Below the pieces are notes generated by a model. It was not told the DNA's origin, searched no databases, and saw nothing but the letters and a program-made list of their open reading frames with translations. From IMG/VR virus record IMGVR_UViG_3300027708_000016: a DNA stretch of 64,000 nucleotides, one strand, 5' to 3'. The position numbers and the translations under genes were made by a program. Origin of the DNA: a virus (Duplodnaviria > Caudoviricetes). Positions 34,234-62,971 of the stretch are shown here, one piece after another (positions within the stretch are counted from its first letter, which is position 1; the number at the start of each line of letters is the position of its first letter).

Positions 34234-35428
34234 ATTTTTTTCTATCGTTTTTTGATAATGGTTTAATTTTATAATGACCATCTGGGGTAATTTCAGTTAC
34301 TTCTCCAAAATTACCTCTGTCATCTTCGATTACATCACCTACACTAATATCATTGCCTTGGTCTTTTGTACCCGTACCAGTTGATGAACTAGTACCCGTA
34401 CCAGTTGATGTTCCTCTTCCAGTTTGCGTAGATGTACCAGTACCTGTTTGGGTTCCTGTACCAGTTCCTGTTTGAGTTCCTGTACCTGTCTGAGTACCAG
34501 TTCCTGTTTGAGTTCCTGTACCTGTCTGAGTACCAGTTCCTGTCTGAGTACCAGTACCTGACTGAGTACCAGTTCCTGTTTGGGTTCCTGTACCAGTTCC
34601 TGTTTGAGTTCCTGTACTTGTTTGAGTTCCTGTACCTGTTTGAGTTCCTGTACCTGTCTGAGTACCAGTTCCTGTTTGGGTTCCTGTACCAGTTCCTGTT
34701 TGAGTTCCTGTACCTGTTTGAGTTCCTGTACCTGTCTGAGTACCAGTTCCTGTTTGAGTTCCTGTACCTGTCTGAGTACCAGTTCCTGTTTGGGTTCCTG
34801 TACCAGTTCCTGTACCCTTACTTTTATTTTTTTCTAAAATGTCATATATTTGTTCTGCTTTTAAATCAGTAATATCAACATTATTAAGTTCCCATCTCGG
34901 AGGTGTCATCCAATCTTTTCCGTTAGCTATCCATCTTCCGTTTTTAAGAACAGGAAGTAAAGCCATACGATTTAATTTCAACCCAAAAATTTCCAAATAT
35001 TTGTTAATAACATAATCAGTAGAAACATTCCAGAGAAGATTGTCTCTACCAAGTTGTCTATCAAAAGATGATAATAAATAATGATGAACCTCGTGAGCTA
35101 AAGTTGCGGTAAACTCATCTTCTGTTATTTCATAAGCAGCAAATTTTGGATTTATGTAAAGATTTTCATAACCATCAACTGCCATTGTATCAACAGACCA
35201 ATCAAGATTAATAGCTAATTTTTTAAGGTGAATTCCTATTGTTTTAAAAAATCTCGACAAAAACATTTTAGAATTTAAAAGTCTTTTATCAATTATTTCA
35301 AAAGCTTCTCTTTCGTTAAATTCATCTCCTCCTTTAGAGGTGGGTGTGGGTTCAGGTGCTGGCGAATTTTCGTTATATATTGAAATATAACGCTCCATAA
35401 TAGATTGAAGATCTTTACTATATGCCAT
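34226..35428 (-). CDS. Putative metallopeptidase (DUF2201_N-like) with Thr/Gly repeat linker
   Basis: [30 protein letters not shown]; (TGTQTG)n; C-terminal SH3/KOW-like VGDVIED. Confidence 0.85.
34370..34815 (-). repeat. Coding tandem repeat encoding (GTGTQT)n
   Basis: About 20+ imperfect 18-nt units such as gttcctgtacctgtttga. Confidence 0.95.
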
Positions 35429-47135: not shown

Positions 47136-47741
47136 ATGAACGAAGAAATATGGAAAGACGTAGTAGGTTACGAGGGATATTATGAAGTTTCAAACATGGG
47201 TAACGTAAGATACTTAAAAAGATATAATAAAAAATGCGAACCCCAACTCATGAAAAAATGGACTAGAAATAAATATCCAGCAGTCACCTTCAATATCAAG
47301 AAAAACGGAGATAAAAGAGCAGTACACAGATTGGTAGCAGAATCATTCCTACCAAACCCAGAAAACAAAAAATGCGTCAATCATAAGAATGGAATCAAAT
47401 CAGATAACAGAGTGGAAAACCTAGAATGGTGTACACATTCAGAAAATAATCTCCATGCCTTTCAAACAGGATTACGAATAAATTCTTGGTTAGGTAAGTT
47501 CGGTCCTGAACACAATTGCTATAAGGGAGACATATTGGCATATAAAAATGGTTTACTAGTTTATACACTTAAAGGAAAGAAAAGCATGGATGAATTTGGA
47601 TTATCTTACAATAGCGTTTTAGAGGTTATTAACAAGATACACAAAAAATACAAAGGTTTAATCTTCATAAGACCTTCGGACTATAAGGGAAACATTTCAG
47701 AAATTTCAGAAAGCTTTTCCATCCAAGGTGAACTCTTCTGA
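47136..47741 (+). CDS. NUMOD4-HNH homing endonuclease
   Basis: EIWKDVVGYEGYYEVSNMG; VHRLVAESFLPNP; VNHKNGIKSDNRVENLEWCT.SEN. Confidence 0.93.
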   Translation: MNEEIWKDVVGYEGYYEVSNMGNVRYLKRYNKKCEPQLMKKWTRNKYPAVTFNIKKNGDKRAVHRLVAESFLPNPENKKCVNHKNGIKSDNRVENLEWCTHSENNLHAFQTGLRINSWLGKFGPEHNCYKGDILAYKNGLLVYTLKGKKSMDEFGLSYNSVLEVINKIHKKYKGLIFIRPSDYKGNISEISESFSIQGELF

Positions 47742-47792
47742 AAAACTTCTGAAGACTTGTAACGACTTGTAACGACTTGTAACGACTTGTAA
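47736..47792 (+). repeat. 10-bp tandem array, left border
   Basis: ttctgaaaaac ttctgaagac then (ttgtaacgac)x3; core AACGACTTGT. Confidence 0.9.
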
Positions 47793-47902
47793 AAGAGTCT
47801 TTATAAGAGGTAGCGCACAAACACACCCCCTATAGGGTACTATAAGGAGTACCCCCCTATATTTTGTATACCCCCTATTTCGGGCATTGCCCCCCATATC
47901 AT

Positions 47903-48059
47903 CGTCTTACGCAAAGGGGTCTATGGGGCATTTTTACGGAGGGGTTCTGCGTCTTACGCACTCCGAAAATCCGAGGGCGTTTTAATGAGACGCTGTTGAT
48001 CGTCTTACGCATCGTAGCAACAGGGGCAAAAAGAAACCCGACCCATTTCTGGATCGGGT
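47903..48059 (-). promoter_or_regulatory. Three direct CGTCTTACGC copies + final intrinsic terminator
   Basis: Copies at 47903, 47950, 48001; hairpin ACCCGA..TCGGGT with T-tract on minus strand. Confidence 0.85.
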
Positions 48060-48079
48060 GACTCTTGGAGTTGGATCGA

Positions 48080-48259
48080 CTACTTCTTCTTTGCCTTGGT
48101 GGGTTTGGCTTGGGCTTCGACCATGTCGAGGATGGTGGATAGTCCTCTGATGCACAGGTCACTCATGTTGAGTTCTGGGTGGGCATCGGTGATTGCCTTG
48201 AGACGGATCTTCACATCGACAGGGCAACGGAAGGTGATGGAGGTGTTACGAGCTTGCAT
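48080..48259 (-). CDS. Ribbon-helix-helix (CopG/Arc-like) DNA-binding protein
   Basis: Beta-strand SITFRC, helix PVDVKIRLKAIT, helix NMSDLCIRGL; basic tail; start refined. Confidence 0.7.
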   Translation of the reverse strand: MQARNTSITFRCPVDVKIRLKAITDAHPELNMSDLCIRGLSTILDMVEAQAKPTKAKKK

Positions 48260-48299
48260 TGTTTTGTTTGTGGTGAGGAGGTTGTGCCTCACGAAAGAC

Positions 48300-48469
48300 A
48301 TACTAGGGAACTGCCCTACTCCGTGCAACTACAATCGTGGGAATCTTTGCGTAAGACGCTCATACTATTCTTGGTCTGGGTATCAGCGTCTTACGCAGCA
48401 GTCTGGGGCAACGGGTTGGTGGAGTCATCGGTGCAGAAAAAAACCCCGACCCATTTCTGGATCGGGGTT
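48300..48469 (-). promoter_or_regulatory. Cassette head 1: terminator - GCGTAAGACG dyad - promoter
   Basis: Dyad 48349/48387 (28-nt gap); TTGCAC-17-TAGTAT with -35 20 nt from motif. Confidence 0.85.
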
Positions 48470-48490
48470 GTCTTGGAAGACGCAGTTATA

Positions 48491-48688
48491 TTATCCCATG
48501 ATGGAGCAATACTTCTTGAAGTCTATTACTCCCTTGAGATAGGAAGCGACAGCGACTTGCTGGGCGATGGGGAATCCCATGAGTTCCGCAGCAGTCAGAA
48601 GTTTCCAAGTGGAATACCTCTTTGCACTCTCTTTGGCATCGGTGAGGTTGCCATTGAGAAGGGAGACGATTGTGTTCCTTGGGTTCAT
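48491..48688 (-). CDS. Small hypothetical protein
   Basis: MNPRNTIVSLLNGNLTDAKE... Confidence 0.55.
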   Translation of the reverse strand: MNPRNTIVSLLNGNLTDAKESAKRYSTWKLLTAAELMGFPIAQQVAVASYLKGVIDFKKYCSIMG

Positions 48689-48689
48689 A

Positions 48690-48893
48690 TTACTTGGAGA
48701 CGAAGGGTGTTTGTGCGAAGGAGACATCGTTCCAATGGAAGGAGACGCATCCCCATGAGTTAGCTTCAAAGAAAGCGGCATGGTGGACAACGGATTGATG
48801 TTGCCAGTAGAGGCTAGTAGCGAGGCAGTCCATCACGCAGATGATGCTGATGGTGAGGATGAGGAGGAGTGTTTCGTAGGTGGATGCTTTCAT
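48690..48893 (-). CDS. Small membrane protein
   Basis: N-terminal TM helix. Confidence 0.55.
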   Translation of the reverse strand: MKASTYETLLLILTISIICVMDCLATSLYWQHQSVVHHAAFFEANSWGCVSFHWNDVSFAQTPFVSK

Positions 48894-48931
48894 TTTAGTG
48901 GGTGGTGAGGAGGTTGTGCCTCACGAGTTAG

Positions 48932-49096
48932 AAGGTAGTGAAAGACGATGGAGGATGCAACAAGAATCGTGGGAATCTTTGCGTAAGACGCTGATATTTG
49001 TCAGGGGTATTAGCGTCTTACGCAGCAGTCTGGGGATGACGGATTTGTTGTCGAGGCACAAAAAAACCCCTACCACTCCGAAGAGCAGTAGGGGTT
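48932..49096 (-). promoter_or_regulatory. Cassette head 2
   Basis: Dyad 48981/49014; TTGCAT-17-TACCTT, 20 nt from motif; terminator about 49060-49096. Confidence 0.8.
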
Positions 49097-49114
49097 CCCC
49101 CTCTACTAAAAGTT

Positions 49115-49456
49115 TTAGGCGACTCCGAGGAGGTATTCCAGTTGAGCCATATACTTGTATGGGACGATGAATGCCCATCCTCCCTCGTGATGAGCATACC
49201 CGACTACTCGCACACCCGAAGCCTTGAAGAGGTTCGTGACGCAGACAAAGGAGTTATTGTCCATAGGGCAGATAACTCGCTTGTTGTTTCCCTGTTGAAG
49301 GGTGATGTATGCAGTTCCCAGTTCGCTCACGCCTGTCTTGGCAGTGACGATGATTCGTGCGTTTGGATCTCCGAAGAGATTGTAGTTCCTTCGCTTGCCA
49401 CCCATGTTCCAGTTGAGGATGGAATCATTGATGGTGTTGTTGTTGTATTGGTTCAT
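49115..49456 (-). CDS. Hypothetical protein
   Basis: Start refined to MNQYNN downstream of promoter and leader. Confidence 0.6.
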   Translation of the reverse strand: MNQYNNNTINDSILNWNMGGKRRNYNLFGDPNARIIVTAKTGVSELGTAYITLQQGNNKRVICPMDNNSFVCVTNLFKASGVRVVGYAHHEGGWAFIVPYKYMAQLEYLLGVA

Positions 49457-49493
49457 TTTAGTGGAGGTGAGAGGGTTGTTTCTCACGAATTGG

Positions 49494-49728
49494 ACTATGC
49501 AGGAAAGTGTGAGGCAGGGCAAGAAAAAAGTTTGGGATCTTTTGCGTAAGACGCTGATAGCTCCAAGGATTTTCAATGCGTAAGACGCTGAATCATAACC
49601 AGAAATCTTTTGCGTAAGACGTTGATATCCAAAACATTACTGGGTATTAGCGTCTTACGCAGCAGTCTGGGGGGTCGCCTAACATCCGAAAAAGACACAA
49701 AAAAAACCCCCACCTTTCGGTGAGGGTT
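49494..49728 (-). promoter_or_regulatory. Cassette head 3
   Basis: Motifs 49544, 49578, 49612 (+) and 49651 (-); TTGCCC-17-CATAGT; terminator about 49699-49728. Confidence 0.85.
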
Positions 49729-49750
49729 TCTTGGAAGTTAGTTGGCGATG

Positions 49751-49999
49751 TTAGTTAAGTGACTCGACCAGATCCTTGACCAGATCGACCCATGTGACTT
49801 CCGACTCGGTCTCCCAAGGAAGGGGCGCACCATGTTGATCCCAATACATCTGGAGGTAATGCTCCTTGGTCAGGTTGGGGTTTTGTCCGTCTCCGTTGCA
49901 CCAATCTTCGATCTCATTGTAGACCTTGGTTTCCAGTTCTGGCGACATCTGGCAGATGTTGCGACAGGCGATGTGGAACAGGATGGTTTGCTTTGTCAT
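49751..49999 (-). CDS. Hypothetical protein
   Basis: Single-gene cassette. Confidence 0.6.
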   Translation of the reverse strand: MTKQTILFHIACRNICQMSPELETKVYNEIEDWCNGDGQNPNLTKEHYLQMYWDQHGAPLPWETESEVTWVDLVKDLVESLN

Positions 50000-50037
50000 G
50001 GTAGTGGGTGGTGAGGAGGTTGTGCCTCACAGACATC

Positions 50038-50229
50038 AATCTAGCAGGGTCTCTGGACAGGGCAAGAACTTTCTGAAGAATCTTTGCGTAAGACGCTAAA
50101 ACCTTTTTGGGCAAGAGGTTGCGTAAGACGCTGTAAGTGTTATCGTCTTACGCATCGTAATGCGACACCATGTGTTATTGTAACACGCTGTTGTGGGGAA
50201 ACCCTCACCCTATTTCTAGGATGAGGGTT
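50038..50229 (-). promoter_or_regulatory. Cassette head 4
   Basis: Motifs 50086, 50121, 50144; TTGCCC-16-TG.TAGATT; hairpin CCCTCA/TGAGGG. Confidence 0.8.
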
Positions 50230-50255
50230 CTTGCTATCACCCCACTACGAGTAAA

Positions 50256-50516
50256 TTAGTAAAGGTGTGCTGTGGTCTCTGTCACCTTGTTGTTATTGAT
50301 CTTGTGTTCAAACATGATCTCCTTTGCAAACCCCCTCATGATGCAACGAGGTTGGCGTTTCTGTGCGTGAGTTTCAATATCCACTCCATGAGTCTTGACA
50401 TGGTGGACGATATGACAGACCTTCTCCCAGTGCATGGTAAGGACATTGCGACCTTGCTTGACGGACTCTGCCTTGTAGTAGTGGAAGAAGAAGCGTTTTG
50501 GTTTGAGTGTTTTCAT
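50256..50516 (-). CDS. Hypothetical basic protein
   Basis: FFFHYYK...HVKTH...QPRCIMRG. Confidence 0.6.
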   Translation of the reverse strand: MKTLKPKRFFFHYYKAESVKQGRNVLTMHWEKVCHIVHHVKTHGVDIETHAQKRQPRCIMRGFAKEIMFEHKINNNKVTETTAHLY

Positions 50517-50539
50517 AGTGGTTGTTGATTACGATTAAG

Positions 50540-50758
50540 AGAATACAACAAGCCTGTTGAAGTGCAAGAGAAATCTTCAGAAATCTTTTCAATCTTTGCG
50601 TAAGACGTTGATAGTAAATAATTTGCTAATAACAGCGTCTTACGCACGTGGCAGCACCCCGCTGCGGGTGGACACTCGTGGTAATGCGACACCATGTTTT
50701 GTTTTTTCAAAGTGTGCTATAAAAACAAAAGCCTCCCACCCCGAAGGATGGAAGGCTC
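50540..50758 (-). promoter_or_regulatory. Cassette head 5
   Basis: Dyad 50598/50636; TTGCAC -35 is 30 nt from motif; terminator about 50726-50758. Confidence 0.8.
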
Positions 50759-50781
50759 TTGCTGAAGGGTTGGAGGTTAGT

Positions 50782-51771
50782 CTATGCCACTAGAAGAATC
50801 TGTTCACCCCTTGCTTTGACTCTGTTGGTTTCCTTGTCATCGGTGAGAATGGAGAACCAATCCCTCTTGCTCTCACTAGCAGAACCGAACTCACTGGAAA
50901 CATATTGCTTCCAAGGATTCTTGTCTCCCCCAGAGGATTCATGGGAGAAGTAATCGGTTGCTCCACTGAAGAGATCAGCCATAGTCTTTCCCCTGTTGCC
51001 TTTGCCTGTCTTATAGAGATCCACTACCCTGTCCACCATGTTGATAGTGCGAGTTGAAACCTTTGTATCTGCTTCAAAGGTTGGAGGAGTGAGGATACCG
51101 AAGGTGATTTTCCTTGCTGTCTCCTCTTCACAATCCATGCTTTCCATAGAGTCCATTGCCATTTGGAACTCTCTTGTCACTCCATAGTGCCTGTCGATTG
51201 CCTCACTCATGCCATCCAATCTGTTTGCGGCATTCTTTGTGTGCTTGATTCTCATGTTGAACTCTCCTTTACGAGAGAGTGCAAGGGTGAGGGTGTTCTG
51301 ACACACGATGCAGGTGAGACCAGAGTTGGCAATCAGAGCAGAGATACCACCATGACCCCAAGTAATGTTGAGCATATTCTCATGCTCTCTGTTCCCTGCA
51401 ACAATGTTGTCGGAGAGTTTGATGGAAACAAATACCTTTGAACGAGAGCAGACGCTTCCCAAGGAAACTACCTTGTTCTGGGTTCCAATGAGTGCATCCT
51501 TGATCATGGATAGAACCTGTTCGTTGGTGATGAGACAATACTTGTCACTCACTGGATTGCCAATGGGCAGACCATTATCTAGAGAGACAATCTGTTTGAA
51601 GGGAGTCTCCACTTCATTCTCTCCGACCTTATAGGTGAGAGGGAGGGTGATCATGGGATAGGAGATTTCGCAATCCTCGTCGAGTTTGATTTCGGGCTTG
51701 ACCTTGGTGAGTCCGTGCCATGCTTGTTCGATTCCTACCTGTATGTCTGTGTCTTCAATCATGTGTGCCAT
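50782..51771 (-). CDS. DUF932 (TIGR03299 phage/plasmid-like) protein
   Basis: AWHGL, VSDKYCLITN, LGSVCSRSKVFV, VCQNTL, IKHT.NA, ATDYFSHE; start refined to MAHM. Confidence 0.8.
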   Translation of the reverse strand: MAHMIEDTDIQVGIEQAWHGLTKVKPEIKLDEDCEISYPMITLPLTYKVGENEVETPFKQIVSLDNGLPIGNPVSDKYCLITNEQVLSMIKDALIGTQNKVVSLGSVCSRSKVFVSIKLSDNIVAGNREHENMLNITWGHGGISALIANSGLTCIVCQNTLTLALSRKGEFNMRIKHTKNAANRLDGMSEAIDRHYGVTREFQMAMDSMESMDCEEETARKITFGILTPPTFEADTKVSTRTINMVDRVVDLYKTGKGNRGKTMADLFSGATDYFSHESSGGDKNPWKQYVSSEFGSASESKRDWFSILTDDKETNRVKARGEQILLVA

Positions 51772-51815
51772 CGTTGTGGGTGTCGGTTTGGTCAGTTGAC
51801 TCTTCTGTATTGCTG

Positions 51816-52022
51816 ATAATAGGGAAAACAAATCCATCTGCAAGAAAAATCTTTCAGCTAGGAATAGATTCTTTGCGTAAGACGTTGAAAGTAAATAGAT
51901 GTCCAGATAACAGCGTCTTACGCAGCCATCGAGGGCGGACGGGTTTGGGTGTCGAGTCATCGAGTTTGATCGAGACACAAAAAAAAACCCCCACCTTTCG
52001 GTGAGGGTCTTTGCGTAAGACG
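51816..52022 (-). promoter_or_regulatory. Cassette head 6
   Basis: Dyad 51875/51914, extra motif 52013 abutting terminator; TTGCAG..TATTAT, 31 nt from motif. Confidence 0.85.
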
Positions 52023-52032
52023 CTAGTAGGGT

Positions 52033-52482
52033 CTAGCCTATGGAGATGATGTTATCCATCTGAACCACGAAACAAGGTTTCGGGTTGGGTTTCTTGTTGC
52101 TCTCGGTGAGCATCCCCTGATACTCCTCCTTGGCAACCTCCTTGCCATCCACAAGGTATGTCACCTTGGGTGCTTGGATCACGCCCCCTGTTGCTGGGTA
52201 GAGGCGAAGGTAATCCTTCTCCTTGTGCGTGATGTGGAAAGGGAACTTTGCCCATGTTCCCCAAGGAAGAGGCTCAACTTCCCCCCTCTCCCCACGAGCG
52301 ATTGCCTCCTTCACTTCAGAGAGATTGGCATAATCAATCCCTGCACGAAACGCCCCAGAGGTGATCTTCTCAAGGGTATGCCCCTTGAACTCTTTGGCTG
52401 GCTTGCTCTCCGACTTGAACTCAACATGAACATGCTGTCCAGTGAGTGAACCGACTACCGACATGACTGCTTCTGATTTCAT
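52033..52482 (-). CDS. Conserved phage hypothetical protein
   Basis: RAGIDYANL, LPWGTW, YLRLYP; start refined. Confidence 0.6.
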   Translation of the reverse strand: MKSEAVMSVVGSLTGQHVHVEFKSESKPAKEFKGHTLEKITSGAFRAGIDYANLSEVKEAIARGERGEVEPLPWGTWAKFPFHITHKEKDYLRLYPATGGVIQAPKVTYLVDGKEVAKEEYQGMLTESNKKPNPKPCFVVQMDNIISIG

Positions 52483-52557
52483 CGTAGGTGATGTCTCCAG
52501 TTGTTCGATTGCTCCTGCCCCTCGTAGGTGATGGGTTGAGTCGCTTTCGATATAGTG

Positions 52558-52754
52558 AATGTAGTGGATCAATTCCCAAGGTGCAAGAAAAACCTTCGGA
52601 ATCTTTGCGTAAGACGTTGAAAGTAAAAAGATGTCCGAATAACAGCGTCTTACGCAGTTTCAGGAGGCACGGACGGGTTCAGGGTTAGGTTTCAGGATTG
52701 GATGAAGGCACAAAAAAACCCCCACCGATTTCTCGGTGAGGGTTGCGTAAGACG
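52558..52754 (-). promoter_or_regulatory. Cassette head 7
   Basis: Dyad 52607/52646, extra motif 52745; TTGCAC-17-TACATT, 20 nt from motif. Confidence 0.85.
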
Positions 52755-52762
52755 CTGGGAGT

Positions 52763-53416
52763 CTAGTGTTGCTTGTAATTCACTAGGTAGACATTCTTAT
52801 CCCAACAGGCTCGACATGATCCGCAGACATTCCCTTGTGAGGGTGCAGGGCAGGTATAACCAACAGCAGAGGAAACGCCCGACACTTGAACGCCTAGTCT
52901 TTTTGCGATTGCATCGGGTGTCTTTCCGTCAATCATAAGAGCAGAGAGACGAATGCAGAGATTTTCTGGGATAGTGTTTCCCTCTTTCTCTATGTAGTCG
53001 CTGACGATGGAGTATTCCCTAGTAGGAAGCCAGAACTTGATAAAGGGAAGATTCTTTGCCACTTGGCAAATCTTTTCCAAGTGCCAAGTGCCTTGCAAGT
53101 CTCCGCTATCGTGCCAGCGAAAGAATCCGCTTTTCTCTTTCTTGGAAATCAGAAAGGTGATTGCCTCCGTCCACCTAGGATCTAAAAGGGAGGCAAAACG
53201 CTTTTCCATAGCTTCAATGACATTCTGGAATATGTAACGCCCCTTGCAAGCATAACACTTCTCGCAAACCGAACCGACGATTTTGCGTAGGATGCTTCCG
53301 ATCTTGCAACGAAAAGCAGGGGTGTTGTATGAGTAGCCTGGCATTTTTGAAGGTGCCGACAGGGTGTGAACGATTGCCTCCGCTTGCTTGGCAGTTTTTA
53401 AGGTAGTGGTTGTCAT
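52763..53416 (-). CDS. GP88-like putative Fe-S protein
   Basis: SKMPGYSY, C..G......VCEKCYA, FRWHDSGD, WLPTRE, CPA......CGSCRACW. Confidence 0.8.
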   Translation of the reverse strand: MTTTTLKTAKQAEAIVHTLSAPSKMPGYSYNTPAFRCKIGSILRKIVGSVCEKCYACKGRYIFQNVIEAMEKRFASLLDPRWTEAITFLISKKEKSGFFRWHDSGDLQGTWHLEKICQVAKNLPFIKFWLPTREYSIVSDYIEKEGNTIPENLCIRLSALMIDGKTPDAIAKRLGVQVSGVSSAVGYTCPAPSQGNVCGSCRACWDKNVYLVNYKQH

Positions 53417-53424
53417 AGGGCATC

Positions 53425-53675
53425 AACATAGCAAAGTCGTTGGAGGGTGCAAGAAAAATCTTCGGAATCTTTGCGTAAGACGCTAATACTCCAATCCTAG
53501 AATCCCCCAGAAGGATTCCCCCTACGGGGGAATCCTTTATGCGTAAGACGTTGATAGTAGGATATTTATAAATAACAACGTCTTACGCACAGGTCTGGGG
53601 TTGCCCGTAGTAAGACGAATTCTTACTCATAAGGCAAAGAAAAACCCCTTGAATAGGGAATATGTATTCAAGGGG
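53425..53675 (-). promoter_or_regulatory. Cassette head 8
   Basis: Motifs 53473, 53541, 53579; 12-bp hairpin aaggattccccc/gggggaatcctt between them; TTGCAC..TG.TATGTT, 20 nt from motif. Confidence 0.85.
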
Positions 53676-54539
53676 TAAGGCAAACTCCTACCGACTAGGA
53701 GTTTATGTTGTTTTTCTTCTATGCATTTTCGTCTTCTGGATGTTTTTCCCTGCAATAAGTTGCTACTCCTGCATCATAACCCCACTTGTATTGAATGTGG
53801 GAGATGGCATTCTTTTCTCCATCGTAAGGATTATTCTCTACTCCTTGGATATACCCATCGTTGAAACCACGGACATATGATTTGGTATTTGGGTTTGGGT
53901 GTGTCATAATCCGTGGATCTTGATGTGGTGTTGGATTGCCTCTACCAATTCCTTTAGTTTATTATTTGGAACTGATAGTGCGTGTTCAAACCTTTCATCA
54001 TCATGCCTAATGTTGAAGTTTGTATATTCATCAAATTCTTCGGAGATTTCGATGACAAGATCTTTTTTTTCTTGGTATCCTATATCCATAATGATACTGG
54101 TTTTGATTTTCATTTAGTGTATTATTGGTTGGGTTTGTTTTTTTGTGGTAATGCCGCACCATGTTCTATTAAAACACACTTTGCATTTGAACTTTAGTTT
54201 GTATTGAGAGCTTTGATATCTTTACCCACAGAGAAGGAGATGAGTAAAGAACCCAATACTACAAGCATTGGATACTTTGACCAGTTCTCTTCTTCATGGA
54301 GGGCATCCAATAGATTCTTGATCTTCTGGGTTTGTTGTTTTGTCATATCTTTGTATTGTCCACAACATTGTCAAACTTGTCAAGCAACTCCTGTAGATCA
54401 GGATCGTTGACGTAAACTCTCTCAATGTATTCATAGAGTTCATTTGCTGTATCGATTATATTTATTGTTTTTGTTTGTAGATGAAAGTATTCACGAATCA
54501 TTGCTTTCCTCGTGAGATCTTTGTATTGGAGTTCTGTCA

Positions 54540-55151
54540 TTATTCATCATCCTCGTTTTCCTCTTGGCAGTCAAGGAAATACTGGACATCCAACTCCTCC
54601 TTCAAATGTTCTGGGCAATCATCAATATCATCATAGCAGTTGTCACTCTCTGATCCATCTGCATTGACAAAGTATTCTCCTCCGAACATCCAACCCTCAT
54701 CGTAGTAACTCATACGAAGGGACTCACCCGTAAGCTTTGCAAGTTCTCTGATGACATTAATCGGAGGACTCCATGCCGTTTGAAATCCAACGTCTGAAAG
54801 ATCATCAATCTCGTTGAAACCATCTTCCAAGGTATAACAAGAGTATGCATTCCATTTGGTGTCCCAGTTGGCAACACTCCAATCATACCAAGATTTGAAT
54901 CCATAATCCTTTTCATTCTGCTCTTGTAAAAGATCATGTGCTTTCTGTCTTGCTTCTACTTCTTCTGGTGTCCTTTCCTTGGTGATCTCTTCAACGGAAG
55001 ATGAGTAACAAGTCTTTAGGATTCCTTCTGGCATGGGGAGGATCTTGTTGAAGTCAATACTCTTGCCATCATCTGTAAGATAAGGTTTGATGATTGATCC
55101 GATGGTCTTTCCACTAGTGCAGGAAAGGAGGTTGGTGCAATGGTTAGGCAT
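54540..55151 (-). CDS. DUF1281/YubB ferredoxin-like domain protein
   Basis: MPNHCTN, WYDW..NWDTKWNA, FQTAWSPP, YYDEG..F.G. Confidence 0.82.
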   Translation of the reverse strand: MPNHCTNLLSCTSGKTIGSIIKPYLTDDGKSIDFNKILPMPEGILKTCYSSSVEEITKERTPEEVEARQKAHDLLQEQNEKDYGFKSWYDWSVANWDTKWNAYSCYTLEDGFNEIDDLSDVGFQTAWSPPINVIRELAKLTGESLRMSYYDEGWMFGGEYFVNADGSESDNCYDDIDDCPEHLKEELDVQYFLDCQEENEDDE

Positions 55152-56652
55152 AGTGTTATTGGGTTGGTTGTTTTGGAGTATTGAATGGTATGATTAAAGG
55201 TTGGTCATTGGCAAGAAGAAAATCTGTAATCATCTGGATTATTTTATTCTTGACTTTATCTTTGCAATGCTCTGGACGAAACTGGATAGTTCTTCTACCT
55301 TGGAAATAATGATTGATTCCGAACTTACCAATATGTTGGTGAACTTCGGTTCTTTTAAATCTTTCCAATTCCTTGGAAGGAAGTTCACCATCTTCAAAGA
55401 TGATTGTCCAATGAACAGATCTTTGTTCATGCAAAGGATCATCAATAAATTCGTGGGAGATTCTTCTGCTATGTATTCTCATTCTGTTGGTATTGGGTAG
55501 GTTTGATTGATAAAGATCTCCACTTCACGATCAAAGGGAGTCATTTGGTTTTTCTTTGCGAAATTGATTCTCACCATATCTCTCTTGATAATGCGAGTCC
55601 ACTTGTTATTGTTCTTCCAACTCTTTCTAGAGTCAATAATCTGATACCATTCCTCGTTAAGATTAGATGTAACAGACGGAGAGATGTTCACATTAAACCA
55701 TCTGTTCTCCTCGCTAAAATGTTTAGCAAGGTTTCCTTGTGCTGGTTTGCTGGTGAAGGTTATCATGATAGTCTCGTATTGTCTTTCATTTGTTGTTGGG
55801 TAGGGTGTCGATTGATTTGAAGGATTGCTCTACTAGTTCATAGAAGTAATACCTGCTGTGCATCAGATCAGTTGTATAGAGATCCTTCATCAAGTCAAGT
55901 GCTTTCTTTTTGTCCTTGGGAATATCTCCTGTCGAGTATAAGTGCTGAAGCATTTCCTTATCACTATACACATGGATAAGGTAATGCGTTGAGTCTCTAG
56001 AAACTTTCTTGGGTTTCTTTGGTTTGGTGGGTTTGGGTTCTTTCATAGTGATCCGTATTTGTTGTAATAGCAACCTACTACAAACAACAGCAATAGGACA
56101 AGCATTATCTGTTCTCGATTTCGGGTAAGACGAGGAAAGTCTTCAAGTGTTTGAAGGCACTTCCAAGGCAGGAATCCAAAGAAAGGAAACCATACTCGGT
56201 TTGCGTAAGACCTTGAACATCATCGTATTCGTATCCATAAAGATTGTGTTCTGTGAAGAAAAGGATGGTAAGAGTTGGAATATGTTTTTGCATTTGTTTT
56301 TTTGTTGAGATGGTTTCTAGGTTGCCCCCCTCTCTTGAACCACTAAGAGAGGGAGGACTTCCCTATGAACTCTATTGAGCCACTACTCTCAATAGATACC
56401 ACCAAATTTATATTATAGGTTTTTAATGATTTGTCAAGAATCTTTGACTATTAGTAAAGATTGTATTTGTAATTTCCGATCTGGTTATTGTTAAACAAAC
56501 GAGTGTGCCAGTTGCTGTGAGTCGTCTCCATGATATGCATGAAGATGAGAGAATTCTTTGGGTTGACTTCCTTTCCGAAGAAACGAAGTAGTAGTGTGAT
56601 TGGATCTTTCATTGGACTTATAGTATGATTGTTTTTGGGTTTGGTGTCAATA

Positions 56653-57234
56653 TCAATCTTTGGATTTCTTTGTAGCGTAAGACTTCCAGATCGTCAAATC
56701 CAAATCGGCAGGAGTCATCTGGTGAATAATTGCTTCTTGCAAGAACAACTTCTCAATCTCTGCGTATTTCTTTTTCGGAGGAGTTGCTTTAGGAATACTC
56801 TTATATCCCTTCTCACTCATCCACTTCAAGATGTGTGTATCAAGCACAGCAACATTGGCATCTGGTCGAGAGTGAAGGATAAAGAAACGAGCAGTCTTTG
56901 ATCCGATACCTTTGATGCTCTCCAGTTGTTCGATGGTGACCTTGGACAAACGACCTTTGAACTTGAGGATCTCCTTGAATGCATGACCGATCCTTTTGTA
57001 TTGACCTAGCTTAAACTCCTTCATCTGGATCTCAAGCCACCCCATGCTAGACAGACGAGAAATAAGAGCAAAGGGTTTGCCTTTCTCCTTATGCATACAA
57101 TGTTTGAGGAAAGCATCTAGCTTCCTTGCCTGTTGCTCTGCTCCTTTGCCAGCAACGAGGATTGCGAACATAAGGAACTCTTCCAGTTCAGCTTCGGTGC
57201 GATTATAGTTGGTGATGGTGGTTGGTGTGATCAT
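56653..57234 (-). CDS. HhH-GPD base-excision DNA glycosylase-like protein
   Basis: LESIKGIGSKTARFF (HhH), VAVLDTHILKW, DLTIW. Confidence 0.85.
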   Translation of the reverse strand: MITPTTITNYNRTEAELEEFLMFAILVAGKGAEQQARKLDAFLKHCMHKEKGKPFALISRLSSMGWLEIQMKEFKLGQYKRIGHAFKEILKFKGRLSKVTIEQLESIKGIGSKTARFFILHSRPDANVAVLDTHILKWMSEKGYKSIPKATPPKKKYAEIEKLFLQEAIIHQMTPADLDLTIWKSYATKKSKD

Positions 57235-57239
57235 AGGTA

Positions 57240-57653
57240 TTAGAAACTAGCGATTGCTTTGATTGTGTCAAGTCTTTTTGATTCGACTTTCCAACTATCT
57301 GTAATTCTCTGGAGAGGAGTATTTGTCAGATGGTCGTATATGATGCCATCAATGATAGCAAAGGCATGACCACGACGACGAACCAAGTAGCGACCAGTTG
57401 GGTATCTTTCAAGGAATTTTTGGATGGTTATAGGTTTGTGTTTCATCTTGCGAAGACTGATACCATGCTTCTTTGCTGTCAAGGCTAATTTTTCGGTATG
57501 AAATCCACGACCAGTTTTTCTTCCTGCGGCTTTTCCTATTTCAAAAGCTTCATTATAGGGAATGCCAGCAGATGTGGACAATGCACAGATGGTGCAGTTG
57601 TTGTTGTCTTTGATACCAGAATCTTTCTCTGGTGTAACTCTGATGTGTTTCAT
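57240..57653 (-). CDS. Conserved phage protein with Cys...His pattern (possible papain-like fold)
   Basis: DNNNCTICALS..., GHAFAIIDG; start refined. Confidence 0.5.
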   Translation of the reverse strand: MKHIRVTPEKDSGIKDNNNCTICALSTSAGIPYNEAFEIGKAAGRKTGRGFHTEKLALTAKKHGISLRKMKHKPITIQKFLERYPTGRYLVRRRGHAFAIIDGIIYDHLTNTPLQRITDSWKVESKRLDTIKAIASF

Positions 57654-57682
57654 TGGTAGTAGTTTGGTTTGGTTTGGAAATA

Positions 57683-57822
57683 TGCCAAGAACTTTCTGCA
57701 CCAACCTTTGCGTAAGACGTTGAAAGTAAAATATATTTAAATAACAACGTCTTACGCAGTTTACGGGCTGCGGCTGCGGGAACCTTTCGAGGCACAAAAA
57801 AACCCGTCGAAATCGACGGGTT
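57683..57822 (-). promoter_or_regulatory. Cassette head 9
   Basis: 13-bp perfect dyad 57710/57748; terminator ACCCGTCG-AAAT-CGACGGGT; promoter weak. Confidence 0.75.
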
Positions 57823-57829
57823 AAAATTG

Positions 57830-57901
57830 TGGGATCGTCGAGACTCGAACTCGAAACCAATTCGTTAAAAGCGAACTGCTCTACCATTGAGCTACGATCC
57901 C
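57830..57901 (-). tRNA. tRNA-Lys(UUU), no encoded CCA
   Basis: GTTCG-CTTTTAA-CGAAT. Confidence 0.92.
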
Positions 57902-58144
57902 ATCGGTATCCTTATATCTTTGGATAAATTGTATTTTTAAGCAATGCCAAAATATCCTCGTTCAATACCTGAAGGAGTATAGGCGCATCAAAAAAAGCAA
58001 AAAGGTGTTCACCAACCAGAAAAACCCTATACTTACCTTTGTATTCATTTTTAAGTTCGACAACGAACTCCTGAGACATTTGACTAGAGATATGTCTTGC
58101 AGTATTCATTTGTCTATTGTAAAGATTTTTTAATTTATTGTCAA

Positions 58145-58219
58145 TGGTGCTTTCAGTAGGAATCGAACCTACATTTGATCTTTAGAAGAGATCAGTCCTA
58201 TCCGTTGAACGATGAAAGC
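58145..58219 (-). tRNA. tRNA-Arg(UCU)
   Basis: GATCT-CTTCTAA-AGATC; CCA. Confidence 0.92.
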
Positions 58220-58227
58220 ATATTGAC

Positions 58228-58300
58228 TGCCCTCGGAGGGATTCGAACCCCCAACCAATCAGTTATGAGCCGACTGCTCTGACCATTGAGCTACAAGGGC
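58228..58300 (-). tRNA. tRNA-CAU (Ile2 or elongator Met)
   Basis: GTCGG-CTCATAA-CTGAT; canonical D- and T-loops. Confidence 0.88.
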
Positions 58301-58823
58301 GAAGGTTCTAAAGTTCTATTGGAATGTCATGGAGTTCTGAACCAATAGGAATGTTTTTATTGTCTGTTCCATTGTTTCCGAACAAGTCATCTGTTGGTTC
58401 AAAGATCCCCCTTTTTGGAGAATAGTAATCATCCTTTGAAGTGATTAGAGATTCAACCCAACTCTCATCTTCCGCCCAAGGGTTGCTCTTTGGAAGATGA
58501 ACCCTGTATGCGTAAGACATAGTTAGGAGAGTAGGAACTCATAAAGGTTTCCAACAATCAGGCGATTGTCATTGGTGATTAGTGCATTCTCCAACTCATC
58601 GTAGAAAATGACTGCTTTGTTTCCACCGATAACAATGTCTGGTAGACCTTCATCGTAGGTTGCATCTCCGTTCCAGTAATCGACTTCAATATCGAAAACT
58701 TTGTTTCCTGCTTCATCGAGAGTATAACCTTGGATGTTTTTTGCTTCCTTGATCTTCTTGACAATCATCTGGGTGTTTGTCAGAAGTTGCTCTCCATCTT
58801 CATCAATTATTGTTGACATTGTA

Positions 58824-59915
58824 TTAGTTCTTCTTTGTGAATTTACCAAGGGCATCCCTCAAGTTGTGGAAGAGAGATCCATCTGGCTTCTTGCCATACT
58901 GGTTGTCATCAGAGTGACAAGATCCACCACAACAAGTTGTCTCCTCGGTTTGAGTGTATCCACACTTCTTGTCAAGGTAATCATTGAAGGTTGGCTCATC
59001 ACAAAGACCAGCATCTTCAACATCCCTGCATGACCCACAACGAGATTTCTCGTAGTCATCATAAGTGTTAGTGAGATCAGTTCCACAGATAGTGCAGAGT
59101 GCTGGCTCATCGTTGTCCTTGTCCTCGTAGTCTCCACCATCGGAGGAGTAGAGATCGGAGTCGAATCCGTTCTCTCCACGACCCAACTTCTCCCTCCAAT
59201 TCTCGGTGTATTCAGCGATCACCTCATACTTGCAAGTGCGACCCTTGGTGTTGTTGTAGTCAGCAGGGATAGCAACTACATCCTTGGGATTGATCTTGAC
59301 GATCATGGTCTTGCCTCCGTTGCTGTCAGAGAAGTGAGGGAGATACTTGATGGAGCAGAAGTGCAAACCATAAGAGCAAGTGCGATCCTTGTCCTCATCC
59401 ACCTTGTAGCGAGGCATCTCACACACCTTGCCAACAGAGTTGTCAAATGATCCAGAGTGAATGTCCTTGTAGTCAGCACGAACATTCTTGAAGGCGAGGA
59501 AGAATCCATCCTCGGTGATAGGCAACTCTCCAACATCAAGGAAGTCATACAACTCATTGACTGCACGATAGGAGGAGTTCTCCATCAAGTTGTAGAGGAA
59601 ATTGAGCAAAGGCTTGAATGGCAAGTCCTGTTGCATGAAGGAGATCACCCTCTTGGTGAGAGTATTGTGAACTGGTTCTCCCTTATAGACGATGATGCCA
59701 TCAAGGATCTGGACATCGGTGTTGAGAACGAAGTCCCTCACCTTACGAGACAGATCGACTGCATCAAGGAAAGCATCCCAATTCTGTGCTTTGACAGCAT
59801 CAAGAGCTTTGGTGTAGTTTGGGTGAGTTTGGTCAATCGTGTAGATTGCCCCGTTGATACAAGCAGAGATTTTTCCCTGTCCTGTAATGGTGACTGCATT
59901 GTTGGTGTTATTCAT
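58824..59915 (-). CDS. rIIB: RIIB-like protein
   Basis: HPNY, FL.NLMEN.S..AV.ELYDFL, PITEDG.FLA.K.V, DNSVG, CS.GLH.CS..Y, K.RTC.YEV. Confidence 0.92.
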   Translation of the reverse strand: MNNTNNAVTITGQGKISACINGAIYTIDQTHPNYTKALDAVKAQNWDAFLDAVDLSRKVRDFVLNTDVQILDGIIVYKGEPVHNTLTKRVISFMQQDLPFKPLLNFLYNLMENSSYRAVNELYDFLDVGELPITEDGFFLAFKNVRADYKDIHSGSFDNSVGKVCEMPRYKVDEDKDRTCSYGLHFCSIKYLPHFSDSNGGKTMIVKINPKDVVAIPADYNNTKGRTCKYEVIAEYTENWREKLGRGENGFDSDLYSSDGGDYEDKDNDEPALCTICGTDLTNTYDDYEKSRCGSCRDVEDAGLCDEPTFNDYLDKKCGYTQTEETTCCGGSCHSDDNQYGKKPDGSLFHNLRDALGKFTKKN

Positions 59916-59953
59916 ATAGTGATACTACTTTGTTTTGTTTGGGTTGTCAATAC

Positions 59954-61936
59954 TTATTTTTCTAGTTTCTTTGCGAGGAGAAGATACATCTGTTGATCGT
60001 CTCCATAAGAACCTAACAGATTAGAGAGAAGGAAGTCAAGTGCTTTATCTGCCATCTTGAAAGTATCTCCCATAACCTTTTGATCCAAGAAGGGAAGAAC
60101 ATTCTGGACTTTCTCATACTTATTACCAAGTGACTTGAGCTTGACAAGCATCTGCTTAATGAGGTTGGAGTCATCAAGGTCTTTATACTCTTTATGAGCA
60201 ACAATGTCATTGATCCTGTGCCTTGCGTAAGACGATATAACCCCTACCTCCTCCATGTCAACCCAAGTAAGGTCATGCTCCCTGTTGAACCATTCAATGA
60301 AGTCTTGACTTCCCCTTGCCTTGAGCTTCTTTGCCTCCTTCTCGGTGACAAGAACAACCTCATTGATATTGATAGTAAATGCTTGACAATAGGTGCGAAG
60401 GCGATCCTTGTCTTGGATCAGGCGAAGATTATTGAGCTTGACATTCAACTCCCATGTCTTTCCCTTGAGAATATAATACTTGGGGATATTTGTGCATGAT
60501 GGTTCGATTGTCCTTGACTCCCAAGAGACATTGTAGGTAGCCCCAATCTCGTAGCAAGTGATGTCCTCTTTAGCCTTGATAACGATTGTTCCGTTCTTGA
60601 GCTTCCTCTTGGCAGTAGGAGAAGGCAAAGAGGAAGCAGATTTGAATACATCGGGGAAACCAACCTCCAACATGGACTGCTTCTGTTCTTGGGTGAACAA
60701 GATAGCACAGGTATCACTTGTATCACGAATGAGCATCTTGATACGAGCAAATGGATTCTTACATCCTCCATCATCGTAATACCATTCAAACTTCTTATCG
60801 AAGCTGAAGGATGTGCTGGTGTTCACCTGCTTCCTGTATGAGTAGCGAGAGAAGGACTGAATAGAAGTCTTGAGAATATCCTTGACAAACTTGTGGGGTT
60901 CACTGATGTCGTAACCTTTATACACGACATCCTTCATCTCAAATGCTTGGTTGCCATAGAAGGAGAACCTCTCTTGGAAAGCTCCTAATGCCCTGATGCT
61001 GTCAAGGATATTATCCTTGGATACGATCTGATCCTTTGCCTTGTGTTTGATCTCTGTCAAGACTTTTTCCATCTTGTCATTGATAGCCTTGATAGTGGCA
61101 TCGTCATAGGAGAGATGCTCACGACTTGGAGCAAAGTCCAACTCACCCATAGCAAACTTGAGAACCACACCCTTGCGAACAATCTGGTTATACTTGTCAG
61201 CAACCTTGTAGTGGTCGATAGGATAGGTGACTCCACCCATGATTGCAAATGCCTCCCATTGTGTAGAGGAATCCAAGAACATCCAATCCTCACCAGAGAA
61301 CATAGGTTTCTCCTCTGACCAATAGCACACTCCACCAGAGGTAGTTGGCTTGACATCGAAGAAACGAAATGCTTTCTGGACTGATTTGATAAACTCATTG
61401 AAGTCTTTCTCCTTGACAGGGATCTGGACAGCAACTCCGTTTGACTCGCTAGTGTTCTCCTGACTCATCAGAGCAATCGTAGGGTTGCCATCTTGAGCAA
61501 AGTAGGCATTGTAGATTCTCTTGACTCCATCATGGATAGAGGTGACAGAGAAGTTGTCCGTATAACAGAAGGGAGACTTTGACCCAAGACCCAAGCATCC
61601 AATCTGATCGTTGGTGTTGGTCTTTGTGGACTCAAAGTAGGTGGAGTAAATGTCGTAGATGTTCTGGTGAGAGATCCCTGTTCCAAAGTCTTGAATGGTG
61701 ATCCAAGGCTCAAGAGAGTTGGGAAGGTGAATATGGAAAGGTTGATCCTTCTTACCAGAGGCAACCATTGAGTCATTAGCGTTGCATCCCAACTCCCTAA
61801 CGATTGCCAGAGGCTTATCGGAGTAGAGGTCAGAGAGGATCTGGAAGGCTTTACGAGAGGACTTCATCTTGAAGGAGGAAGTCTCGGTGATGTTTCCGAT
61901 CTGTTCGATTTGATTAGGTGTGTCGAGTAGTTTCAT
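59954..61936 (-). CDS. rIIA: RIIA-like protein (N-terminal GHKL/HATPase fold)
   Basis: KAFQILSDLYSDKPLAIVRELGCNA.D, QDFGTG, STK..TNDQIG.LGLGSKSPF.YTD; upstream of rIIB. Confidence 0.93.
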   Translation of the reverse strand: MKLLDTPNQIEQIGNITETSSFKMKSSRKAFQILSDLYSDKPLAIVRELGCNANDSMVASGKKDQPFHIHLPNSLEPWITIQDFGTGISHQNIYDIYSTYFESTKTNTNDQIGCLGLGSKSPFCYTDNFSVTSIHDGVKRIYNAYFAQDGNPTIALMSQENTSESNGVAVQIPVKEKDFNEFIKSVQKAFRFFDVKPTTSGGVCYWSEEKPMFSGEDWMFLDSSTQWEAFAIMGGVTYPIDHYKVADKYNQIVRKGVVLKFAMGELDFAPSREHLSYDDATIKAINDKMEKVLTEIKHKAKDQIVSKDNILDSIRALGAFQERFSFYGNQAFEMKDVVYKGYDISEPHKFVKDILKTSIQSFSRYSYRKQVNTSTSFSFDKKFEWYYDDGGCKNPFARIKMLIRDTSDTCAILFTQEQKQSMLEVGFPDVFKSASSLPSPTAKRKLKNGTIVIKAKEDITCYEIGATYNVSWESRTIEPSCTNIPKYYILKGKTWELNVKLNNLRLIQDKDRLRTYCQAFTININEVVLVTEKEAKKLKARGSQDFIEWFNREHDLTWVDMEEVGVISSYARHRINDIVAHKEYKDLDDSNLIKQMLVKLKSLGNKYEKVQNVLPFLDQKVMGDTFKMADKALDFLLSNLLGSYGDDQQMYLLLAKKLEK

Positions 61937-61962
61937 GGGTTGTTTGGTTGGTGTTGAAGATG

Positions 61963-62210
61963 ACAATATACAAAACCATTCCCCATGCAACAAAAATTTT
62001 CACCAACTTTTGCGTAAGACGCTGTTATTAGATGTCCAGTTACCTTGCGTAAGACCTTGAAAGTAGTCATATAATACTAACAACGTCTTACGCAGCGGCG
62101 GATAGAACGCAAATGTTTAGAATTTTTGTTGGTTTGGTTTCTTACATTGTTTTTGAAAGTAATGTAAAAAACAAAAAAAACCCCAACCACCGAGCGAGGT
62201 GATTGGGGTT
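61963..62210 (-). promoter_or_regulatory. Cassette head 10
   Basis: Motifs 62012, 62047 (variant), 62084; TTGCAT..TATTGT, 21 nt from motif; terminator about 62175-62210. Confidence 0.8.
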
Positions 62211-62971
62211 TGCTCTTGCAACCGAATTGTTGCTTATTTCTTCTTCCTATTACAAGTCCACTTACCGAGGCTGTCACGACGATTGTGATAGCGGCACATG
62301 AGCTTCATCTTGCCAAACTGATTGACTGCTCCAAGAAGGCTATACCGAGAAGTATTGATCTCCTCCATGACTACTGCCTTCTTCACATCAGTTGGAAGAG
62401 TATTGAATCCCCCGATATACGAGAAATCTTTAACTACGATTGTGTTATTGGTCATTATTATTTCACCTCCTTTTGTTTGTATTGAAAAATTATCCTACAA
62501 AAGAACCATCCTTGTTCATGGATATGCCCCTTGCCTTTGCTCTCTTGTCAAGTCTCTTGGCACGACAGGTTGCAATCTCTTCCCTCTCCTTTTGTGAAAG
62601 GTTAAGAAGATCATACTTGGTTTCCTTGTCTAGCTTGTGCCAGACGGATTCCGTTTTCATTACATTTTTAGCTCTCCAGATCATTTATATATTATGCACT
62701 AGGTGCGTTAGAATGTCAATAGTATTGTTTTTATTGTTTTAGGGATGGAAGTCCTCTGGAAGTCCATTAGGTAACTGCTCATGCCTCGTCCTCCTCTACT
62801 TCTTCCAAGGTTTCAACCTCGTATTCAGCATTGCCAGATCCCCATAGTGCCTCCATAGCGATTTCAATGGCATTATCGTATGCCTCCTCTTCGTTGTTTG
62901 CCTCCACATCAAAAGACATGGAATCATAGGTTGTGCGAGTGACTTCGACTTTGTATGTTTTCTTCATAGGT

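Follow-up and report, generated by a model that had tools for sequence, protein, structure and literature searches.

Inverted tandem arrays at the borders of a 16-kb early-type gene module in a freshwater phage are candidate boundary signals of a long terminal repeat

What defines the edges of a long block of early-type genes in the genome of a large phage? The question is raised by a stretch of 64,000 nucleotides of a virus assigned to the Caudoviricetes (IMG/VR record IMGVR_UViG_3300027708_000016), hereafter called the window, in which two arrays of a 10-bp word, lying on opposite strands, enclose some 16 kb of genes. The phage is large, uncultured and from freshwater lakes; it carries 17 tRNAs, a transfer-messenger RNA (tmRNA), ribonucleotide reductase and rIIA/rIIB, and near-identical contigs are present in many JGI lake metagenomes and in Logan assemblies. 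A first-pass annotation had proposed that the arrays are terminase, packaging or replication signals defining both ends of the block, with a site of recombination or inversion as an alternative. From the sequence of the borders, the depth of the contigs that cover them and the borders of related genomes, we consider it on balance probable that the arrays mark the boundaries of a direct terminal repeat, ~16.1 kb long, that carries early host-takeover-type genes, as in phage K, SPO1 and T5.

Results

Two arrays of one word face each other across the module

The arrays, identified with Tandem Repeats Finder, and the block between them are laid out as follows.

47746–47756, + strand: CTTCTGAAGAC, a degenerate first unit continuous with the left array
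47754–47792, + strand: left border array, period 10, 3.9 copies, 100% match, unit GACTTGTAAC
47793–63807, genes exclusively on the − strand: module of early or host-takeover type, ~16.1 kb between the array edges
63644–63670: small third array of period 10, inside the right border, 2.7 copies, unit ATGTCTTCAG; on the − strand it reads (CTGAAGACAT) × 2.7, with 7 of 10 bases identical to the main unit CTAACGACTT
63808–63889, − strand: right border array, period 10, 8.2 copies, 97% match, unit AAGTCGTTAG with one variant, AAGTCGTTAA; on the − strand it reads as eight units of CTAACGACTT, one of them TTAACGACTT

The left unit read on the + strand (TAACGACTTG) and the right unit read on the − strand (TAACGACTTC) have nine of their ten bases in common, and the two arrays are therefore inverted copies of each other. 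A repeat search of the window pairs them as inverted arms of 48–50 nt that are 86–88% complementary and ~16.0 kb apart, and 16,136 bp separate the first base of the left array from the last base of the right one. The core 9-mer TAACGACTT has 11 exact copies in the window, three on the + strand, all in the left array, and eight on the − strand, all in the right array; outside the arrays, no exact copy occurs in the window or in the 9.3 kb past its right end (~73 kb in total). When one mismatch is allowed, the 9-mer has 27 matches, compared with 13.5 ± 3.2 expected, a count reached in none of 100 shuffles. These searches confirm the inverted 10-bp-period arrays some 16 kb apart that the first-pass annotation had described. 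They also bear out its observation that repeats near 63646–63666 mirror a motif at the left border: the small third array falls in a second inverted pairing (47740–47766 with 63646–63672, 81%), and GTCTTCAGA repeats lie ~150 nt inside the right array in mirror orientation to CTTCTGAAGAC at the left array. The 10-bp period would place successive sites on one face of the helix.

Several related words surround the arrays. ACTTCTGAAG, which adjoins the left array, has 8 of 10 positions in common with the right-array unit ACTTCTAACG (units compared by eye) and is a copy of CTGAAGA, a border motif found across the clade; the array unit of the window is itself a two-substitution variant of that motif. 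Three further copies of TCTGAAGA lie in forward orientation just inside the right border.

The left array is identical in nine independent contigs, with 3.9 units in each, and the right array has eight units in the window and in three other contigs and nine units in one contig. Variation in copy number, which the first-pass annotation had suggested looking for, is thus seen at the right array (8 versus 9 units) but not at the left (9 of 9 contigs alike). These counts bear on the idea that the arrays are neutral slippage expansions of a border regulatory motif, of which single copies would matter and the tandem state would have no function. The ninth unit is in keeping with this idea, as are the contigs of one run that break inside the left array, as if length variants coexisted, and the lack of arrays in the closest relative, G001. 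Slippage does not explain, however, why the same 9-mer was expanded at the two borders alone and with opposite orientations there, or why the pattern recurs with another 10-mer in the related lineage L037/L047, and copy number is almost fixed across about ten independent assemblies. We regard neutral expansion as quite improbable.

Contig depth steps up about twofold at both arrays

Both arrays are located on a sharp step in base composition. GC content is 30–35% up to 47.7 kb, 38–50% between the arrays and ~30% just past the right array. Depth was taken as the mean k-mer depth per Logan contig in runs X2, X3 and X4, a measure that describes contigs rather than reads and cannot show molecule ends; the ratios of module to flank are length-weighted and are our own arithmetic.

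Run X2: left flank 19.5; right flank 17.8; module contigs 30.6–38.6; ratio 1.85
Run X3: left flank ~14.7 (15.9 in a contig that includes 0.65 kb of module); right flank 14.1; module contigs 19–30; ratio 1.92
Run X4: left flank 7.05; right flank 5.33; module contigs 10–13.6; ratio 1.86

Each step in depth is no more than ~100 nt from its array. On the left, the step in X2 is inside the array itself, where a contig ending at 47783 has depth 19.5 and the next, starting at 47763, has depth 30.6. On the right, depth drops between 63837 and 63949 in each of the three runs, from 38.6, 26.4 and 10.8 (X2, X3 and X4, respectively) at 63764 to 17.8, 14.1 and 5.33 at 63949. Run X7 contains a relative at 95–99% identity and at depth 4–8, which is too low to judge a step. 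No position at which molecules start or stop was detected in the runs, all of which are stored as contigs and could not reveal one. The ~2× contig-depth plateau with sharp edges is what two copies of a long direct terminal repeat would produce; because a block depth of ~1.9× in three runs is the standard signature of a terminal repeat, it supports the reading in which the arrays define genome ends.

We considered two other sources of the extra depth. GC bias was ruled out as the cause of the step because depth within the module falls slightly with GC (r = −0.69, −0.87 and −0.35 in the three runs); a linear fit evaluated at 34% GC, the value of the flanks, predicts a depth no lower than the module mean, not half of it. 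A second genome context sharing the module was likewise rejected, as the border-crossing contigs hold no alternative junction. The window is matched by 26 contig loci (from JGI, IMG/VR and Logan, a few being the same contig twice), none of them less than 99.3% identical to it. Border-crossing contigs number nine on the left and five on the right, and each side shows the same flank in all of them and one junction type. Because all 26 loci are so similar and the border-crossing contigs share the same flanks, a second genome carrying the block is unlikely. A single genome context is predicted by a direct terminal repeat and not by a second insertion site. In a collapsed assembly of such a repeat, each edge joins exactly one unique flank, as found here; an inverted terminal repeat would instead give two flanks at one edge.

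The same contigs speak to the alternative raised in the first-pass annotation, in which the arrays would be crossover sites of a site-specific recombinase that inverts the 16-kb block. One observation, the inverted orientation of two similar repeats, favors it. All border-crossing contigs show one orientation, however, as does a 42.5-kb contig that spans the whole block, and no strand-changing joint is among the joints listed for four runs. Scanning the open reading frames (ORFs) in and beside the block revealed no recombinase or invertase gene, so that neither mark of a Gin/Hin/Cin-type invertible segment, a recombinase gene nearby and the presence of both orientations, was found. Inversion would not double the depth, and all genes and promoters of the block are arranged for one orientation. 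We hold inversion by a recombinase at the arrays to be extremely improbable.

The shape of the depth profile also bears on whether the arrays are origin iterons or polar fork barriers, with the block between them over-replicated in infected cells. The phage T4 origin oriE is known to have iteron arrays, replicating DNA from inside cells may make up most of the metagenomes, and mirror orientation would suit a fork trap. Over-replication, however, gives gradients and not a flat plateau of ~1.9× with steps of at most 100 nt in three samples; no initiator gene was recognized among the scanned ORFs, and 10-bp units are short for iterons. This explanation of the block seems to us very improbable. 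The data neither support nor contradict a replication-origin role for the arrays, which the first-pass annotation had also suggested.

The border layout recurs in distant relatives with another word

Scanning metagenomes with an rIIA alignment gave 19 loci with 39–80% identity. No close relative was found in INPHARED, where at the DNA level only the HNH gene has a match, and rIIA is at most 35% identical to that of cultured phages. An array scan of IMG/VR gave one match, a near-identical fragment of 5.6 kb.

In the lineage L037/L047, JGI Ga0114958_10001344, whose rIIA is 42% identical to that of the window, the gene order from rIIA to DUF932 and a small ribbon–helix–helix (RHH)-like gene is the same as in the window. 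Its upstream border carries nine direct copies of CTGAAGATTA at a spacing of 17–27 nt, and its downstream border carries four exact inverted copies and one partial copy, with CCCCTATA elements between them, at the very place where GC falls from 45% to 36%; the two arrays are ~17.9 kb apart. A similar arrangement is seen in L034/L060 (rIIA 48% identical), with a mostly forward cluster upstream and four inverted copies of GAAGATTA at the downstream border. The sequence of the border word is not conserved: L037/L047 and L034/L060 use GAAGATTA, and G001 has none. Because distant relatives rebuild the same layout from another 10-mer, the layout itself (many forward copies upstream, fewer inverted copies downstream) is what is conserved, with a word that changes at both borders together. 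Conservation of the arrays in relatives, a point raised in the first-pass annotation, holds for the inverted layout in these two lineages but not for the word and not in G001.

G001/Ga0207959_1000001 is the closest relative, with an rIIA 80% identical to that of the window; it is known from an IMG/VR record of 121.6 kb (54% complete) and from a 225-kb JGI contig. Its module is of about equal size and has the same GC contrast (30–52 kb), with TTGGGTAAAAT as its own dyad motif in place of TGCGTAAGACG, and its left border has an HNH gene and CCCTATAGGGGGTACT palindromes. Aligning the two borders of G001 for a long imperfect inverted repeat gave a score of 27 versus 24 for the direct control, that is, none. 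The terminase gene of the window phage lies outside the window. The Terminase_6N, gp32 and gp45 families were not found in the G001 record, which at 54% completeness makes this result uninformative; genes for head, portal and baseplate wedge occur in one relative, in keeping with a tailed phage, and do not test whether the phage is T4-like. In L041/L042, 24-bp arrays on either side of rIIA were considered for comparison and set aside, as they lie inside ORFs and are coding repeats.

Gene content and architecture of a putative early-gene module

The features of the module and its left neighbor that are relevant to the borders are listed here.

47136–47741, + strand: gene for a NUMOD4 + HNH_3 endonuclease, with its stop codon 12 nt before the left array
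47822–47895, no strand assigned: C-rich palindromic elements CCCCCTATAGGGTACT and AGTACCCCCCTATA, with three CCCCTA within 50 nt, just inside the left array
47903–48011, − strand: three TGCGTAAGACG sites, all oriented alike and lacking a partner dyad, which are the final motifs of the module ahead of the left border
48080–48259, − strand: last module gene, encoding 59 amino acids, a candidate binder only
57829–58300: tRNA-Met/Arg/Lys, within the module
58824–59915, − strand: rIIB
59954–61936, − strand: rIIA
63714–63734, − strand: first TGCGTAAGACG site of the module, abutted by TCTGAAGA and ~75 nt inside the right array

Other module genes encode an Ogg-like glycosylase, DUF1281_C, GP88, DUF932 and the products of ~20 small ORFs. 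The ORFs are grouped in ~11 cassettes, many of one gene, and every cassette comes with its own sigma70-like promoter (for example, TTGCAC, 17 nt, TAGTAT), two TGCGTAAGACG sites in inverted arrangement and an intrinsic terminator; the −35 boxes are of the TTGCAN type and the −10 boxes are TAnnnT. Transcription runs inward from the right array, whose eight units lie upstream of the first module promoter. The 3.9-unit left array, inverted relative to the direction of module transcription, comes after the last gene, the three unpaired TGCGTAAGACG sites and the cluster of C-rich palindromes. Judged from the cassette architecture and from rIIA/rIIB, the module would be an early or host-takeover-type region, an architecture that fits a repeat of early genes. 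The block would make up 7.4% of a circle of ~217 kb; the position of a bilin-reductase cassette implies a circle of ~216.9 kb.

Of the 37 TGCGTAAGACG sites in the window, 36 are in the block, where 0.2 would be expected by chance, and most form inverted pairs ~29–30 nt apart upstream of each promoter (window positions 48300–63730). The dyad TGCGTAAGACG-N24–36-CGTCTTACGCA had no match in a scan of IMG/VR. In the relatives L034, L037, L046 and L036, the core GTCTTAC or TCTTAC is kept in clusters before rIIA. From their sequence and placement, the TGCGTAAGACG sites look like a regulon code that may co-evolve with a candidate binding protein.

C-rich clusters like that inside the left array are found at the same border in G001 (L019, ~9660–9710) and are interleaved with the arrays in L047 (14402–14550) and L060 (16700–16830). 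The palindrome CCCTATAGGGGGTAC at the G001 border matches 14 of the 15 bases of CCCCATAGGGGGTAC in the 160-bp terminal repeat of T7 (T7 bases 25–43), a likeness noticed post hoc that is possibly due to chance and that, if real, would be a lead to a shared end or packaging signal.

The HNH gene next to the left array has a homolog at the same border in G001 that is 35% identical, compared with 80% for rIIA, and no HNH gene is present at the corresponding border in L047 and L060. For these reasons, its product is probably a homing endonuclease and not a core part of the system.

We also noted features of the genome that extend beyond the borders. In the window phage, G001, L034 and L037, the GC content of the early module exceeds that of the remaining genome by 8–17 points, an excess that is not seen in the more distant relatives L040–L044. 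A dispersed element of ~30 nt, GGTAATGC(G/C)(A/C)CACCATGT..TATT(AA), occurs at 50150–50179, 50674–50703, 54141–54170 and 55581–55610 and also in L012 (~8860–8900), L018 (7068–7457 and 18485–18548) and L034 (5670–5730); it lies both inside and outside the module, is present in several relatives and often adjoins TAATACAACA repeats. A non-coding element at 6620–6700 of L012, ~2.75 kb past the right end of the window, consists of about three AAATACCC-type units followed by three AAAAGTGGG units with a 10–11-bp period. It sits between an acetyltransferase-like gene and a gene of 144 amino acids, recurs in L018 (2056–2120) and L034 (962–1029), and is thus kept in three lineages with rIIA 48–80% identical to that of the window; in G001, the GC-elevated region has its far end at this element. 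The tmRNA is at 22808–23258 on the − strand (Rfam, 84.9 bits). The tRNA genes lie between 22731 and 58300, with three (Lys, Arg and Met) in the GC-rich module, and 13 of the 17 have an anticodon that begins with U and reads A-ending codons. At 34434–34813 (− strand), a long tandem repeat of 18, 24 and 96 nt lies in an ORF of 400 amino acids that also matches an HNH PHROG; it is a collagen-like coding repeat of the Gly-X-Y type.

Candidate binders and a regulatory reading of the arrays

Two candidates for the protein that would read the arrays are a small terminase subunit and the 59-amino acid product of the last module gene. The model of the latter has an extended N-terminus and two helices (pLDDT of 81), and its top VIA-align rows are CopA(SO), omega repressor, ParD, TacA and PutA-RHH, with weak Z scores of 4.8–5.5. 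The product has no Pfam, PDB-sequence or Foldseek match, and BLASTP gave no alignment with its positional counterpart in L047. On the strength of the model, we treat it as a candidate RHH-like DNA-binding protein, the structural match being weak.

Such a protein also features in a different account, in which the arrays are dense candidate binding platforms for a regulator of the early regulon, acting as insulators, sinks or loop anchors that set the limits of the transcription domain; they would have no relation to genome ends, and the doubled depth would have another cause. Several features of the module point this way. CTGAAGA, two substitutions away from the array unit, also occurs singly just upstream of −35 boxes in the module, and in L037 single inverted copies of the array unit stand beside promoters. 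The module has its own dense motif code in the TGCGTAAGACG sites, and it ends with the small protein of predicted RHH-like fold; going by the title of PDB entry 2bnw, omega is an example of an RHH protein that binds short repeats set in rows, both direct and inverted. This account leaves unexplained, however, the plateau of ~1.9× with steps at both arrays in three runs. Exact TAACGACTT is never at promoters, only in the arrays, and regulation gives no reason for mirror orientation at the two edges. As a replacement for the terminal-repeat reading we find it rather unlikely, although a platform role could coexist with that reading.

Discussion

We infer that the doubled depth is that of a terminal repeat whose physical ends lie at the arrays. 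The assembled map would then be a collapsed one, in which a single copy of the repeat joins the end of the unique DNA to its start, and the packaged genome would carry the repeat at both ends. Each array would be a phased row, with a 10-bp period, of putative sites for a single sequence-specific protein. As the rows face opposite ways, the action of this protein at one edge of the repeat would mirror its action at the other. The protein might, for example, nick opposite strands, after which strand-displacement synthesis would duplicate the 16 kb as concatemers are cut. Duplication by nicking and displacement is the classical model for repeats of the T7 type. A search of the literature on repeats at concatemer junctions found nothing relevant.

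The first-pass proposal that the arrays are signals defining both module ends gains from the depth in three runs and from the recurrence of the layout in a distant relative, but it is weakened by the closest relative. The terminal-repeat reading has several points to its disadvantage. G001 has the module without border tandem arrays and without an inverted repeat between its borders, so the arrays are not indispensable for whatever defines the module; if they are dispensable for end formation, the conserved CCCCTATAGGG-type palindromes would be the better candidate signal. The array-unit copies near promoters in L037 fit a transcriptional role. Contig depth, by the depth method's own warning, does not equal copy number, the three runs may share a sampling campaign, and the leftmost 4 kb of the module have a somewhat lower depth than the rest. 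Finally, T4-like phages normally package by the headful, with random ends, and a full-text literature search found no T4-like phage with a long terminal repeat. If this phage is T4-like, either its lineage packages differently or the doubled depth has some other cause.

A more far-reaching proposal is that large freshwater phages with T4-type structural genes have swapped random headful ends for a sequence-defined repeat of 16–18 kb that holds the whole early program, with edges set by mirror-image arrays whose word drifts at both edges together. We advance this proposal tentatively and consider it doubtful. If it is true, a single array-binding protein would serve the two edges in symmetric fashion, perhaps by nicking opposite strands before strand-displacement duplication. 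Should the phage be genuinely T4-like, the group would not be restricted to headful packaging with random ends. Such a repeat would also bear on metagenome assembly, on how completeness is judged and on how the early-gene programs of such genomes are read.

Comparison with known systems

The first-pass annotation had likened the arrays to the short repeats SRL and SRR of T7. The likeness is a loose one and holds insofar as rows of a short word adjoin a terminal repeat: the T7 record has at least eight CCTAAA/CTAAAG hexamers at ~13-nt spacing in bases 161–420, just inside the 160-bp repeat. It fails in orientation, as the CCTAAAG repeats of T7 run in the same direction on both sides, with none inverted, and the word also occurs inside the repeat; the arrays of the window are inverted, not in the same orientation on both sides, and the repeat they would bound is 16 kb and not 160 bp.

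RHH proteins (omega of pSM19035 and the ParR/ParG centromeres) and small terminase subunits at the phased boxes of pac sites offer a parallel in cooperative binding to tandem short repeats of direct or inverted orientation, and the last gene of the module has an RHH-like predicted fold. The window differs in having no partition ATPase or terminase gene near the arrays, and the fold match is weak (Z of 5.5).

The terminal redundancy of Bacillus phage SPO1, 13 kb long, is a host-takeover module, and the 10-kb repeats of T5 carry the pre-early (first-step-transfer) genes. The module of the window is like these in its many small early-type genes with their own strong host-type promoter and terminator and in a putative repeat that makes up 6–10% of the genome; it is unlike them in having rIIA/rIIB and tRNAs inside that repeat. 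To our knowledge, no border arrays have been reported in SPO1 or T5. How the edges of long exact repeats are recognized, and how the repeats are duplicated, is poorly understood in T5, SPO1 and phage K, where the signals are known only as short conserved words. What is new here is the presence of multi-copy phased arrays at both edges, with words that change together across lineages. This paired change would make the word a concrete and testable candidate recognition site, and it predicts a single cognate binding protein.

The Kayvirus genomes (Staphylococcus phage K, 812, B1 and JA1) have long terminal repeats (LTRs) of ~8 kb that carry host-takeover genes and are delimited by approximately double read depth and by 12-bp inverted repeats, TAAGTACCTGGG and CCCAGGTACTTA, at the junctions with unique DNA (PMC6022877). 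As would be the case in the window, a repeat of several kilobases holds early genes behind host-type promoters at ~2× depth, short inverted repeats mark the junctions of repeat and unique DNA, and a homing endonuclease is associated with the LTR. One short sequence inverted at both junctions, as in the Kayvirus arrangement, is what we find at the depth steps in the three + strand copies of TAACGACTT on the left and the eight − strand copies on the right; among the relatives of the window phage, the layout of the bracketing sequence is kept and its sequence is not. The two systems differ in that each border here has a phased tandem array (3.9 and 8.2 units) instead of a single 12-mer, the border word varies among relatives and changes at both borders together, and the repeat would have double the length, with a GC content far above that of the remaining genome. 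The virus studied here is also an uncultured freshwater virus and not a herellevirus, with its ends inferred from contigs. In phage 812, a 35-bp tandem repeat that varies in copy number forms the end of the unit genome beside the right LTR (PMC6445280). This tandem repeat next to an LTR, together with the LTRs of the Kayvirus genomes, is the closest known arrangement to the arrays described here.

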